A stretch of 64,000 nucleotides of DNA, taken from assembly GCA_000004695.1 (NCBI GenBank), contig CM000152.2, positions 5,984,001 through 6,048,000 on the forward strand, in the 5' to 3' direction. This DNA comes from Dictyostelium discoideum (Eukaryota). The number at the start of each line of letters is the position of its first letter. Position 1 is the first letter of the stretch. A program made the position numbers and the translations under genes. Shown here in pieces: positions 29,022 through 41,130 of this stretch. The notes under the pieces are model-generated. The model made no database searches and was not told the origin of the DNA. It was given only the letters and a program-made list of their open reading frames with translations.

Positions 29022-32000
29022 TTAATTTGGATTTGCTAAAATATGAACAGCAAAATTTAAATCAGTTGATCTTGAAACTAAAGATTCTTGAATCATATTT
29101 GAGAATTTAATTGCAGCTTGTTCATTTGTTAGATCTAAAGCTAAAGCATCACGAAGATAATAGATATCAGATTTTTTACTTAATTCTGGTAAACCACCAC
29201 CAACCATCATTAGGAAAAGGTTGAGGATGACATTTGCATGTTTTCTAATTGTATTGTAAGCTCTTGAACATAGGTCTTCGAAATTTTTGAAATTGTTTTC
29301 ACCACCAATTACATTTGCAAATGCATTGGTGAATACAAAGGGAGCCCTCTCTCTTTTTATTCCATTCCAAGTTTGAACATTTCCCAAGAATCTACCATGA
29401 TCAATATGAAATAGATGGCCAGATTTTGTGATCATAATATTGTCATTATGTCTATCACCAATACCCAATATATAAGAATAAACACAACAACCAGCACAAG
29501 ATCTAATGAAATTTTCAACGGCATTACTATACTCCAATTCTGATGGGTTCTCTTGTTTTAACCATTGAGAGATCACAGTCTCTGAGAATGCAGCAGTGAT
29601 ACCACCTTGTTGTTTTTGAATCTCTGCAATTGTAATTGAGTCACCAACAACCTCAATCATACCCTCCATTGGACCCGTTGCAATACATCTATAAGTAATA
29701 GTTTGTAAATCTATACCATCATCCAACCACATCTTATCCATAATATTAATCATTTGAATAACTAATTGATCTTGTCTTAAATCATCACCAGCTTTAAAAA
29801 TCACAAAACTATTATCACCCATCGGATCATAATTTTCAATTGATAAAAATAATGGTAAAGTTTTTGATTCTTTAACTTTACAACCATTAACATCAATTCT
29901 TTTACCTCTAAATTCTGGATTAATTGGTGTTTTAAAATCTTCTTGATAATTTAATAAATCATTATTACCATTACCACCATTACTACCACCACCACCTAAA
30001 ACTTGAATTAAATAATCTTTTCTTTTATTATTTGGTACATTTTTTACACCAAGTGCAACTTGTTTAATTTTACTATACATTTGATATTGTTTATAAATTT
30101 CTAATAATTTTTCATCACTACAACCTCTTAAAAAAATTTCTAAAATTAATTGATACCTTTCTAACCATTGTGGATATTGAATTACTGAATTATTATTATT
30201 ATTATTAAATTCTGAATTATTTGTAATATAATTATCATTATCATTATCATTATTATAATTATTATTATTATTATTATTATTATTATTATTATTATTATTA
30301 TTATTATCACCATTATTATCAATATTATTATTATTATCATTAATTTCATTTGGATTAATACCATTTTTTAAAGTTAAAATTTCAGCTTTAATTTGCCAAA
30401 AGAAAATATGAGCCATATTTTGTTTATTTAATAAAACACGACGAATTAGGAATTTTGAAAGTATTGAATAATGATGTGGTTCATGTTTAATTGCTTGAAT
30501 TAATTGTGGAAGATACATAGTGATATCATCATCATTCATTTTACAAAGATTTTGAATTGCAAAATTTCTAACTTGTCTATCTAGGAATGATTGACTTAAT
30601 AATTCTAAACTATCAATTGGATTTTCAAATTGTGGACAATTCATTAATAACCAATAAAACTCTTGAACTGATTCACTATCATTCCAAGGCACAGATAAAA
30701 TTAATTTTGAAATTGAATTATTCATTTGATTTTTACAATAATTTCTATTCTTCCAAATTAATTCTTTTTCTTCTTTTTTTAAATCTGTTAATACATCCTT
30801 TTTCAAAATTGAATTTATAATTAACTGATTTTGATTTGAATCTGGTGTTGACATTGTTGACATGAAATACTTTTCTTCAAGTATTTGTAATTGATGATTA
30901 TCTAATGGTTCTGGTGAGAAGTAAATTGATTGTAATGATAAATCAATTTCAAATGATAGCATTAACGTTTCAAAATCATCTTCATTACTTTCATTATAAT
31001 TTGTAAAATTATTATTATTATTTTGATTTTGATTTTTATTTTTATTAAAATAATTTCTATGTAAATAAGTTGGATTAAAAATTTTATCATTTGACCATAA
31101 TTTTAAATTCATAAAACCAGTATTTAATTTATTTTTATAATTCCAAATATGATAATTTATCCAACCAATGATTGTATCATTAATTAAAACTTTTAAAGAA
31201 ATGATTGCATTTGATGGAATTTGATTGAATGATGGACCTTCCAAGGTACATAACCAACTTGGATTGCTTGATAATGGTAATTTCGGAGTTTGCATTTCAT
31301 TTGAAATTTTATAAAATTCACCTTGATAAATTTGTGCTAAAACATAGATTTTAGAAGAACTTGTATTCTTTATACCATAAAGTTTACCAATTCTTGAAAT
31401 ATCGAAATTTTTTAAACTACCAATTCTAATTTTAAAATTTTTACCACACCCATATGATAGATTCGATGGGAATATATTCTCATTCAATTGTTGGTCAAAG
31501 AAAATATTCTTTTCAAGTTGTTGATTAAATTGAAAATCATATGAATCCAATTGAAATTTATTTATTTCAATCATATTAAATTGATTAATTAAAATCAATA
31601 ATAAATCAATTTTCTTTTGTCTTCTAGATTTTGAATTTATATAACCAATTGAAGATAATTGAGATTGTTGATTTGTTAAATAAATTTCAAGACCACGAAT
31701 TTTAATTAAAAATTTATTCGATTGAATTTCGTGATGCTCAGATTCGATTATTTTTTGAAACTTTTTAAATATCAATTCTTTTAATTCACCAATTGTACTT
31801 TGAATACTACAAACAAATGTTTTAATTATATTCTTTGTAATATATAATCTAATTGTACAATTTGATTCTGTCAATGACCAATTTGAACTTAAATTTAAAT
31901 TATTTATTGATTTTTGTTTTAATATCATAAAATTTGGTAATGATATCATTGATGTTGATGGTGATGATGACATTGGTGATGATGACAATGATGACATTGG

Positions 32001-34337
32001 TGATGTTGATGGACTAAACATTAATAATCTTTTATTTAATGATGATGATGATGGTGAACATGATTTCCAACTATTACCAATAAACTGTTCAAATTCTTCA
32101 TTATTATTATTACTACTATTATTATTATTCATTGCAATATTAATTGCATTTGATTTTAAAATTGATTTAAATAAATTATTTGATGATGATGATTTACTAT
32201 TTGTTATACTATTATTATTATTATTATTATTATTATTGTTATTATCTTGTAAATTATTTAAACTATTACAACTTTGTGATAGTGGACGAGAATTACCAAT
32301 TATTAAAGAAAGTTGAGAAGTTGATGATTTTAAAGAAGGTAATGATGACATTGAAGAATTTGGTGAAGTTGGTGGTGATGAAAAAGGTGATATATTATTA
32401 CCAAGTATGTTTGGTGGTGTTGTTATTGTTGGTGTTGTTGTTGTTGTTGATGATGATGATTGTAATAAAGTTGTTTCATTATCTAATTGAATTTGATGAG
32501 ATTTAACTTGATCTAAAAATTTAATCATTTTATTTCTAAAACTAATTGATTCTTCAGTTGATCTATTATTCTCTAATAATAAATCGTTTCCTAAAATCGT
32601 TGACATTTGAGTATTAAATTCATCTTCAACAAATTTTGAAACTATATATAAATCAATTGACTGATTTTTATTTATATTTGAAAAGTATGGTATATATTTT
32701 AAAGGTTGTTGATTTTGTGATACCGCTTGAAAATAATAATTTGATGAAGTTTTTAAAATTAATTGTTCCATTGAGTAGATTCTTAACCTTTTTAAAATCA
32801 CTGCATCAATTGAATCAATATGTTGATAAATTTTATTTGATAAACTTTGAATAGTATCAAATTCTAAACTATAACTTAACTGGTACGTTATCGTTGGTGT
32901 AATAATATTTATCGGATACCTAATTGAATTTTCAAATGCAAAAATTGGTAAATTATTATTCGAATTTGATAAACTCTCTTTAATTTTCATTTTCCTCTCT
33001 TTTTGTTTAATTTGTATTGATTCAATCTTTTTATTAAATTCTTCTTCTGCTGTTAACAATACTGTTGTTGTTGTTGCTGTTGTTTCTATTTGTTGTTGTT
33101 GTTGTTGTTGTTGTTGTTGTTGTTGTTGTTGTTGTTGTTGTTGTTGTTGTTGTTGTTGTAATTCATTAGTTTCTTTCTTTTTATGTAAATTATTACTATC
33201 GAATGAACTTTGTTTAATTAATAATTTTGATAAATTTTCAAAACTTAAACTACTATCTGATGAACCATTACTACTAATGATTGAACTACCACCATTGCTA
33301 CTACCACCATTACTACTAATGAATGAAGTTGTTGATGAATTTGGTGATTTTAAAGTTTTAATATTATTTTCTAAAGAGATTACTAAATTATTCATAATTT
33401 CATTATCCAATATTGTAATGTACATACTATTTGGTCCACTATTCGTTAAATTTACACTTTTATTAATTTTATCTAACTCTTCTAATAATAATTCATATTC
33501 AATTTTATTATTTTTAATTCTTTCTTTTTCTTGTAATATTTTCTATTAAAAAAAAAAAATTATTAAAATTATTATTAATAATAATAATAATAATAATAAT
33601 AATAATAATAATAATAATAATAATAATAATAATAATAATAATAATAATAATAATAATAATTATAAAAATAAAATTGAATTTTTATTAATACATACATTAT
33701 GATTTTCAATTTTTGATTCAGTTGAAGTTATTAATTGATTTAAATGATTGGTTTTACTTGAATTAATAATTGATGAATCATTAAGTTTAGTTTCTAAATG
33801 GTGACAATTAATTTCAAATTCTTTTAATTGTCTAAATGATTGTGAATTGTTTAATGGTGAACTTGAATTATAAGACTTTTCAAATTCTTTACTTTTTATT
33901 AACCCATTTTCAAATTTATCTTTTTCTTTTTGAATTTGATTTCTTAATAATTCAATCTCTTTTTCATTTGAATTATTTGTTACTTCAATTTTATTATTTA
34001 AATCAATGATTTGAATTGATAATTTTCTATTTTGTTCTTCAATATTTTCAAATTCCTGAAAAAATTAAAAAAAAATAAAATAAAAAAAATAAAAAATAAA
34101 AAAAAAAAATAAAAAAAATAAAAAAATAAAAAAATAATTAATAATTTTAAAAATTATTATTTAAAAAAATGAAAATAATAATTTTTAAAAAATTATATTT
34201 ACTTGTTTTCTTTTAATTTTGTCAATTTTTACGGCATTATAGAGTTTTAAAATTTTAGTTTCAGTTTCTTGGTTTTTGGATTTAAGTTGATTAATAATTT
34301 CTTCATTATTGGTATAATTATTATTGTTATCGTTCAT
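29022..34337 (-). CDS. Class I phosphoinositide 3-kinase catalytic subunit (p110-like) with a long low-complexity N-terminal extension, about 1671 aa. Exons 34337..34203, 34055..33696, 33542..29022.
   Basis: Catalytic region GDDLRQDQLVIQMINIMDKMW...IEVV...SCAGCCVYSYILGIGDRHNDNIMITKSGHLFHIDHGRFLGN...KRERAPFVFT is p110-type rather than Vps34-type. Upstream exons MNDNNNNYTNNEEIINQLKSKNQETETKILKLYNAVKIDKIKRKQ|gtaaat and EFENIEEQNRKLS...ESKIENHN|gtatgt join in phase 0 through a ttttttcag acceptor and a ttttaatag acceptor at 33543..33547, opening 39 codons upstream of the ORF-track Met. Confidence 0.85.
33573..33660. repeat. (AAT)n microsatellite, about 29 units, in PI3K intron 2.
   Basis: Direct reading. 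Confidence 0.95.
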
Positions 34338-41100: not shown

Positions 41101-41130
41101 ACTGATGGTGTTGTAAAAGTTTGGAAATAA
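35111..41130 (+). CDS. vps15: Vps15 / PIK3R4 homolog: N-myristoylation signal, protein kinase domain, HEAT repeats and C-terminal WD40, with large poly-N, poly-Q and Gly-rich insertions. About 1966 aa. Exons 35111..35315 and 35435..41130.
   Basis: MGNTVGAPIVSEYLEDEIGPIVFKKSLGNARFLKTVKAYHSEEGYVVVKIYKKR... matches the yeast/human Vps15 N-terminus (MGxQLS...FLKTCKA...). A GTAGGT donor (35316) and tatatatag acceptor (35431-35434) join in phase 1 to ...[37 protein letters not shown]...FHGDIKSENVLVTSNWVYLSDFA...FYFDTSGRRTCYIAPERF. WD40 repeats lie at the C-terminus (GTVKIWDCQ..., DGVVKVWK). Confidence 0.85.

Follow-up and report, generated by a model that had tools for sequence, protein, structure and literature searches.

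Within a 64-kb stretch of Dictyostelium discoideum DNA (contig CM000152.2, positions 5,984,001 to 6,048,000 of the forward strand; hereafter the window), the phosphoinositide 3-kinase (PI3K) gene pikG and the gene for the PI3K regulatory kinase Vps15 lie head to head across an AT-rich spacer that contains a GT-rich box. The two genes are probably an ordinary divergent pair with a recent, lineage-specific junction, in which each would retain its own core promoter and the GT-rich box would be an element inherited with pikG. The initial annotation had read the arrangement as a bidirectional promoter, and its description of a divergent pair less than 1 kb apart holds and extends to Dictyostelium purpureum, where the pair is kept, but coordination through a shared promoter is unsupported.

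Gene models and the age of the pairing

The analysis of the gene pair covers the whole 64-kb window, AT-rich dictyostelid DNA in which the GC content is about 25-40% in coding regions and about 10-15% in spacers. The start codons lie head to head exactly where the initial annotation had placed them, at 34337 for pikG and 35111 for vps15, and delimit a spacer of 773 bp.

29022..34337, minus strand: pikG (DDB_G0282625), 1671 amino acids (aa), three exons (34337..34203, 34055..33696 and 33542..29022); ATG at 34337, stop codon ending at 29022
35111..41130, plus strand: vps15, 1966 aa, two exons (35111..35315 and 35435..41130); ATG at 35111, stop at 41130
34338..35110, no strand: divergent spacer between the two ATGs, 773 bp, 12.5% GC

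The introns of both models are of the GT..AG type and the spliced frames are open, and neither a tRNA scan nor an Rfam scan returned matches in the spacer or in the whole window. Head-to-head orientation is by itself a common arrangement; divergent adjacent pairs account for about 10 of 34 in the annotated dictyostelid loci sampled, with spacers of 180-960 bp.

The D. purpureum orthologues face each other in the same way, across a spacer of 729-789 bp, and a tblastx comparison of the 24.8-kb D. purpureum locus with the window showed pikG and vps15 alone to be held in common, with different flanks on either side. The pairing is probably also present in one EukProt dictyostelid, whose Vps15 and PikG orthologues (P0124, P0245) are numbered consecutively (gene10002-12267_t and gene10003-12268_t). 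That species is about as far from D. discoideum as is Polysphondylium violaceum, which lacks the adjacency.

Synteny in other dictyostelids had been proposed as a check on the shared promoter, and the pairing fails beyond the closest relative or relatives. It is absent from five dictyostelid lineages that have both genes: P. violaceum, Synstelium, Tieghemostelium lacteum, Acytostelium subglobosum and Cavenderia fasciculata. From the vps15 side, no PI3K was found within 10 kb in T. lacteum, A. subglobosum or C. fasciculata, the upstream neighbour being an aldo-keto reductase gene, a small unknown gene and a DUF3689 gene, respectively, while from the pikG side no Vps15 was found nearby in P. violaceum, T. 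lacteum, A. subglobosum or C. fasciculata. In T. lacteum and A. subglobosum the two genes are not on the same contig or scaffold; they lie about 565 kb apart on one scaffold in C. fasciculata, and carry gene numbers that are far apart in Synstelium. None of 62 metagenomic Vps15 loci (from soil and other sources) had a linked PI3K, and no dictyostelid-like AT-rich contigs were among these loci. The upstream neighbour of vps15 is divergently oriented in all five species compared and varies in identity (pikG, the aldo-keto reductase gene, a 91-aa open reading frame (ORF) or the DUF3689 gene), and a Ribosomal_L1-domain gene downstream of vps15 is common to A. subglobosum and C. fasciculata.

An exhaustive search delimited a tight PikG orthologue group from P. 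violaceum, T. lacteum, A. subglobosum, C. fasciculata and Synstelium as well as one EukProt dictyostelid, and because orthologues occur across these dictyostelids pikG is ancestral; Vps15 orthologues are likewise found across Dictyostelia, apparently one in each dictyostelid examined. Downstream of pikG, a TruB/dyskerin gene is adjacent in D. purpureum (L001 14844..20388) and two genes away in T. lacteum (L069 13664..15499), which suggests that gene order on this side of pikG is the older one and that the derived junction is the one with vps15. The corresponding neighbour in the window is a WDR3/Utp12 homologue (25974..28946, plus strand) and not TruB/dyskerin.

Both genes would then be ancestral to Dictyostelia and would have been joined by a rearrangement in the lineage of D. 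discoideum and D. purpureum, the junction then lasting as a micro-syntenic block of two genes, as is usual for neighbouring genes between these two species. As published, 63% of their 1:1 orthologues fall in perfectly conserved blocks with a mean of 2.8 genes; given that mean, a two-gene pikG-vps15 block is the expected state, and retention of the pairing does not exceed background synteny.

The GT-rich box and the probable core promoters

The spacer and its GT-rich box hold the following elements.

34449..34469, minus strand: T21 run (plus strand: A21), 112-132 bp before the pikG ATG; probable pikG core-promoter oligo-T
34497..34515: non-AT island GATCACCTGCAGGTAGATA, containing a palindrome
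34592..34598, minus strand: CCCACAT, conserved GT-box core in the pikG-strand reading
34593..34616, no strand: GT-rich box TGTGGGTGGTGTGTGAGTGGTGTC, CA-rich on the pikG strand, with three overlapping GBF-type half-sites
adjoining the GT box: non-AT block CTCAACGAACAACG
34848..34874, plus strand: T27 run, 237-263 bp before the vps15 ATG; probable vps15 core-promoter oligo-T
34894..34932 and 34937..34980, plus strand: CA-rich blocks with three ACACACA half-sites, on the opposite strand to the GT box
near 35009..35024: non-AT island CAACAGGCGTCTGTAG

A global MAFFT alignment of the D. discoideum spacer with that of D. purpureum was dominated by A/T runs and misplaced the box, and shared-word statistics were used instead. 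Position-matched shared words that contain G or C occur only at the 5′ edge of the box, as ATAAATGTGG and, inverted, AATGTGGGT. In pikG sense, CCCACA stands at -261 in D. discoideum, -259 in P. violaceum and -272 in T. lacteum, and D. purpureum has CCACAT at -231 with an inverted copy at -243; in the four-species alignment the CCACA core upstream of pikG is invariant. A shuffled upstream region carries CCCACA within -230..-290 with a probability of 0.009 in P. violaceum and of 0.008 in T. lacteum. Because the core is conserved upstream of pikG in these two species, where vps15 lies elsewhere, it predates the adjacency, and judged by its conservation the core of the GT box is a putative pikG promoter element older than the pairing.

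The GT box would accordingly read, on the plus strand, as a CA-rich pikG element whose CCCACA core lies about 260 bp before the ATG, which pikG carried before vps15 arrived and which most likely acts as an upstream activating site for pikG. One modest by-product is that pikG, which according to a recent report is necessary for cyclic AMP (cAMP) relay and aggregation, gains a conserved cis-element candidate. The converse assignment, of the box as an ancestral vps15 element, had been raised by a TGTGGGT in T. lacteum and was downgraded when the reciprocal test gave positional conservation upstream of pikG. That T. lacteum heptamer (L002 9819..9825) is situated in the 221-bp spacer between vps15 and the aldo-keto reductase gene, 40 bp from the reductase ATG, and is the sole such heptamer in the AT-rich DNA of the 25-kb T. 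lacteum locus.

Oligo-T runs are found just upstream of transcription starts in Dictyostelium promoters. In D. purpureum, a run of the same length as that before D. discoideum pikG (A21) is located 121-141 bp upstream of the pikG ATG, and a T17 run is located 154-170 bp upstream of the vps15 ATG. Since each gene has an oligo-T run on its own strand, we infer two separate core promoters that would stand back to back about 380 bp apart, one kept by each gene, with the GT box between them, nearer to pikG and roughly 230-255 bp upstream of the vps15 T-run. The CA-rich blocks at 34894..34980 are downstream of that T27 run and have no counterpart in the D. purpureum spacer; given this position and lack of conservation, they probably belong to the 5′ untranslated region of vps15.

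The GT-rich box, which the initial annotation took for the only non-AT element between the genes, is real but is accompanied by at least four others (the island at 34497..34515, CTCAACGAACAACG, the CA blocks and CAACAGGCGTCTGTAG). Its half-sites start at 34593, 34595 and 34600 and follow the half-site consensus of the GBF element, (T/G)G(T/G)G(T/G)G(T/G) (PMC2257962), and the spacer as a whole has 6 GBF-type half-sites against 0.07 expected from dinucleotide shuffles. The box is of a recurring type, since similar GT-rich boxes within A/T runs occur in intergenic DNA at 16043..16072 (AAGTGGGATGGTGTGTGGTTGTGGGGTGAG) and 41793..41845 (TTTGGGTGGTTGATTGAGTGTGTTTGATAAAAGTGTGGGTGTGTTAGTGTGT), the latter between the vps15 stop and the ATG of the next gene at 42305. 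The island at 34497..34515 includes a perfect 10-bp palindrome (ACCTGCAGGT, 34501..34510) that is flanked by T15 and A16 runs and is not conserved in D. purpureum. A scan of the spacer for bacterial-type promoters and terminators, irrelevant to a eukaryote, yielded 7 sites against 9.8 expected.

Shared regulation and competing explanations

For expression, DDB_G0282627 is presumed to be vps15, tentatively, from the order of its identifier beside that of pikG. The calls used are those of published differential-expression lists and not quantitative profiles (Rosengarten 2015). Neither DDB_G0282625 nor DDB_G0282627 is called in the filter-development lists, all filter_UP lists included, and because of this neither gene shows the sharp induction of the GBF-target type. 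In cAMP-pulsed suspension, pikG is listed as UP_Hr10_gradual, as DOWN_Hr04_rapid and in one more DOWN list, and DDB_G0282627, the presumed vps15, as UP_Hr08_gradual only. If vps15 were DDB_G0282623, its filter call (UP_Hr04_rapid) would resemble pikG even less. The lists hint at no shared sharp regulation, loose co-variation being neither proved nor excluded by them. Vps15 is the regulatory partner of Vps34/PikE and not of PikG, and for this reason the functional link between pikG and vps15 is largely one of a shared name, the PI3K pathway.

Bidirectional pairs have been defined as divergent genes less than 1000 bp apart (PMC2871058), and pikG and vps15 are like them in their divergent orientation, in ATGs 773 bp apart and in being retained in at least one other species. 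They differ from such pairs in having two oligo-T marks about 380 bp apart, a phylogenetically shallow pairing, a sole conserved spacer element that tracks pikG and predates the pairing, and no evidence of co-expression in the lists. The D. discoideum sigN genes, divergent paralogues with paired GBF sites, are GBF-dependent and induced at 10-12 h (PMC2257962). The pikG-vps15 spacer resembles theirs in its clustered (T/G)G(T/G)G(T/G)G(T/G) half-sites in AT-rich DNA between divergent genes, but pikG and vps15 are unrelated to each other and neither is called up at any stage of filter development.

The coordinated expression of two PI3K-pathway components that was first proposed finds no support in the shallow synteny, the older pikG box, the separate T-runs, the differing expression calls, the partnership of Vps15 with Vps34/PikE or the class II-like character of PikG described below. 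A shared bidirectional region, in which the GT box would bind a GBF-like factor that activates both genes and selection would keep the pair together in group 4, is therefore an unlikely explanation, even with a divergent pair whose spacer is below 1 kb, paired GBF-type half-sites with a precedent between the divergent sigN genes, and a PikG activation loop that hints at phosphatidylinositol 3-phosphate (PI3P) or phosphatidylinositol 3,4-bisphosphate (PI(3,4)P2) and so at biology nearer to Vps34/Vps15 than that of class I enzymes. Several observations do weigh against an incidental pairing: in D. purpureum the pair has come through as an isolated block of two genes, with rearrangement on either flank reaching the very ends of the genes, a pattern that selection against breaks in the spacer could account for; the spacer is alike in length in both species (773 versus 729-789 bp); pikG and the presumed vps15 are both 'gradual up' late in suspension, at 10 h and 8 h; and an exact TGTGGGT stands 182 bp upstream of T. 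lacteum vps15, where about 0.02-0.035 are expected, a link to vps15 that is weak and unexplained. What speaks against sharing is that the adjacency is absent in the five other dictyostelid lineages with both genes, that the box core predates the adjacency and tracks pikG, that neither gene has the sharp post-aggregative filter induction typical of GBF targets, that the DOWN calls of pikG are missing for the presumed vps15, that the T-runs are separate, and that two-gene blocks are the norm in comparisons of D. discoideum with D. purpureum. Were it true, co-regulation from one element would offer a compact, testable case of coordinating two routes of 3-phosphoinositide synthesis. It is rather unlikely, too, that the old pikG CCCACA element, moved to about 250 bp from the vps15 core promoter by the group 4 rearrangement, was co-opted for both genes; the locus would then be a natural, datable instance of promoter capture, through which the regulatory subunit of Vps34 was tied to an atypical, class II-like PI3K.

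The T. lacteum heptamer could also mean that each gene, independently and before the joining, possessed TGTGGGT/ACCCACA as a promoter motif general to dictyostelids, group 4 having kept one dual-orientation copy. At unlinked T. lacteum loci, TGTGGGT (vps15-sense) lies 182 bp before vps15 and ACCCACA (pikG-sense) 273 bp before pikG, the single D. discoideum copy fits both orientations at once, and the base rate of the motif is low (0.06-0.16 per kb of AT-rich DNA). This account is nonetheless quite improbable, as the distance to vps15 is not conserved (-518, -493, -182), the motif is not found upstream of vps15 in C. fasciculata or A. subglobosum, the T. lacteum copy may belong to the nearby divergent reductase gene, and the support amounts to one positive test (P ~0.03). 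That the spacer hides a Class I RNA-type non-coding RNA gene, with the box as part of its promoter (a TGTG-box or a Dictyostelium upstream sequence element, DUSE), is highly improbable: the conserved word contains AAATGTG (at 34590), the published TGTG-box sequence, and the reverse complement of that word, ACCCACAT, resembles a DUSE, but there is no Rfam match at E<=1 in 33000..36000 and none at gathering score in the window, the strand that carries the TGTG-like word has no C-containing DUSE 60 nt upstream of it, and D. purpureum shows no conservation of what follows the box. For want of an Rfam match and of a DUSE at 60 nt upstream, this reading of the box was rejected. The ordinary divergent pair is thus the preferred account, and on present evidence it exemplifies how gene density yields suggestive but incidental neighbours; work on promoter sharing could use the dated rearrangement as a control.

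The products of pikG and vps15 and a further kinase-like ORF

The catalytic lysine of PikG is residue 1415 (codon 29793..29795), and since this position equals that of the kinase-dead K1415A allele made in DDB_G0282625 (2026 preprint), the minus-strand gene is pikG. Its D. purpureum orthologue is 47% identical across 99% of its length. The domains of the two products are as follows.

31593..31856, minus strand: PikG Ras-binding domain, aa 728-815 (PF00794, E=1.8e-9, 38.2 bits against a cutoff of 22)
31008..31358, minus strand: PikG C2 domain, aa 894-1010 (PF00792, 25.6 bits, just below the cutoff of 26.4)
30378..30839, minus strand: PikG helical (PIK) domain, aa 1067-1220 (PF00613, E=2.7e-38)
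29178..29804, minus strand: PikG kinase domain, aa 1412-1620 (PF00454, E=5.7e-61)
29328..29408, minus strand: PikG activation loop, GNVQTWNGIKRERAPF
35177..36084, plus strand: Vps15 kinase domain (PF00069, Pkinase, E=3.3e-26)
36715..37776, plus strand: Vps15 helical domain (PF22956, VPS15-like_hel, E=5.2e-22)
39592..41127, plus strand: Vps15 WD40 (PF00400, E=2e-20)

The Ras-binding domain, missed by the full-length scan, passes the Pfam threshold if its region is scanned alone, and the C2 family PF00792 is also on record for PikG orthologues. PikG is like class I PI3Ks in the order of its Ras-binding, C2 (borderline), helical and kinase domains, a core that class II enzymes have as well. From the Ras-binding domain to the kinase, p110gamma is the top match by a narrow margin (386 bits, versus 377 bits for PI3K-C2alpha). 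PikG differs from class I in a class II-leaning catalytic domain, for which, taken alone, the best solved match is the class II PI3K-C2alpha (285 bits, versus 251 bits for p110gamma), and in its activation loop. The loop GNVQTWNGIKRERAPF aligns gap-free to that of PI3K-C2alpha and is missing the class I lysine box; HIDHGRFLGNVQTWNGIKRERAPF, likewise aligned gap-free, retains the KRER box alone, and the class I-specific basic residues for the 5-phosphate of phosphatidylinositol 4,5-bisphosphate (PI(4,5)P2) are not in the loop. On sequence grounds, PikG appears nearer to class II than to class I in its catalytic domain and activation loop, and it may make PI3P or PI(3,4)P2; this argument is a modest by-product of the analysis.

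No adaptor-binding (p85-binding) Pfam family was found in the 1671-aa PikG, the first 700 aa of which are coiled-coil-like and of low complexity. Dictyostelium PikA-C are likewise not known to have a p85-binding domain, so that this domain discriminates poorly in Dictyostelium. The C-terminal PX and second C2 domains of class II enzymes are both lacking in PikG, which has no PX match and ends soon after the kinase domain (...NFAVHILANPN, then stop). Assignment to class III (Vps34-type) was rejected, given the Ras-binding domain and best solved relatives that are class I/II chains and not Vps34. The class I label of the initial annotation agrees with an older convention, reflected in the 'PI3K1-5' strain, which lacks pikA, pikB, pikC, pikF and pikG, but is disputed by the class II-like catalytic domain and a loop without the class I lysine box, and is only partly right. 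Published work has come to this view as well: PikF, PikG and PikH have been termed atypical, with PikF and PikG outside the PikA/B/C clade, and PikG has been tied to cAMP relay, aggregation and the localisation of adenylyl cyclase (2026 preprint).

The product of the plus-strand gene is, by its Pkinase, helical, HEAT (PF02985, also matched) and WD40 domains and its MG start, identified from sequence as Vps15. It has in common with Vps15/PIK3R4 the MG start, kinase, Vps15 helical/HEAT region and C-terminal WD40 propeller, and its N-terminus, MGNTVGAP, is the same in D. purpureum; it differs in being much longer (1966 aa), owing to homopolymer and low-complexity inserts, and is otherwise unremarkable. 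In homology searches, the full-length PikG query was swamped by low-complexity words (3 matches) and the Vps15 kinase domain alone returned short fragments only, whereas a Vps15 query stripped of low complexity worked. The exact spliced D. discoideum PikG and Vps15 are absent from a 15-billion-protein collection in which orthologues of six other dictyostelids are present. Intron 2 of pikG is mostly filled by an (ATT)n microsatellite of about 100 bp on the pikG strand (window ~33575..33670). The D. purpureum pikG orthologue, DICPUDRAFT_35373, has its annotated start at L001 10001, and an in-frame ATG at 9941 opens MNNYSDNLGHQ..., similar to MNDNNNNYTNN at the N-terminus in D. discoideum; the public D. 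purpureum model may be 20 codons short (L001 9941..10003).

A double gene resembling type II phosphatidylinositol 4-kinase (PI4KII), also ascribed to the window at first, was not confirmed: among the ORFs of the window, pikG is the sole match to PI3/PI4-kinase families. The gene meant is probably the ORF at 53460..58643 (plus strand, 1727 aa), in which two sets of kinase-like motifs are seen (KPDNLIV...VIDNDRAF and GNLGNFII...SIDNDQSF). It matches no Pfam family at E<=0.1, BLAST reveals no internal repeat in it, and its PDB matches, to ankyrin repeats only, are marginal. A divergent pseudokinase-like protein is a possible description of its product. On the other side of the pair, the WDR3/Utp12 ribosome-biogenesis homologue at 25974..28946 (plus strand) is presumably DDB_G0282623, and if so its place in the filter UP_Hr04_rapid list would be an unexpected up-regulation in early starvation.

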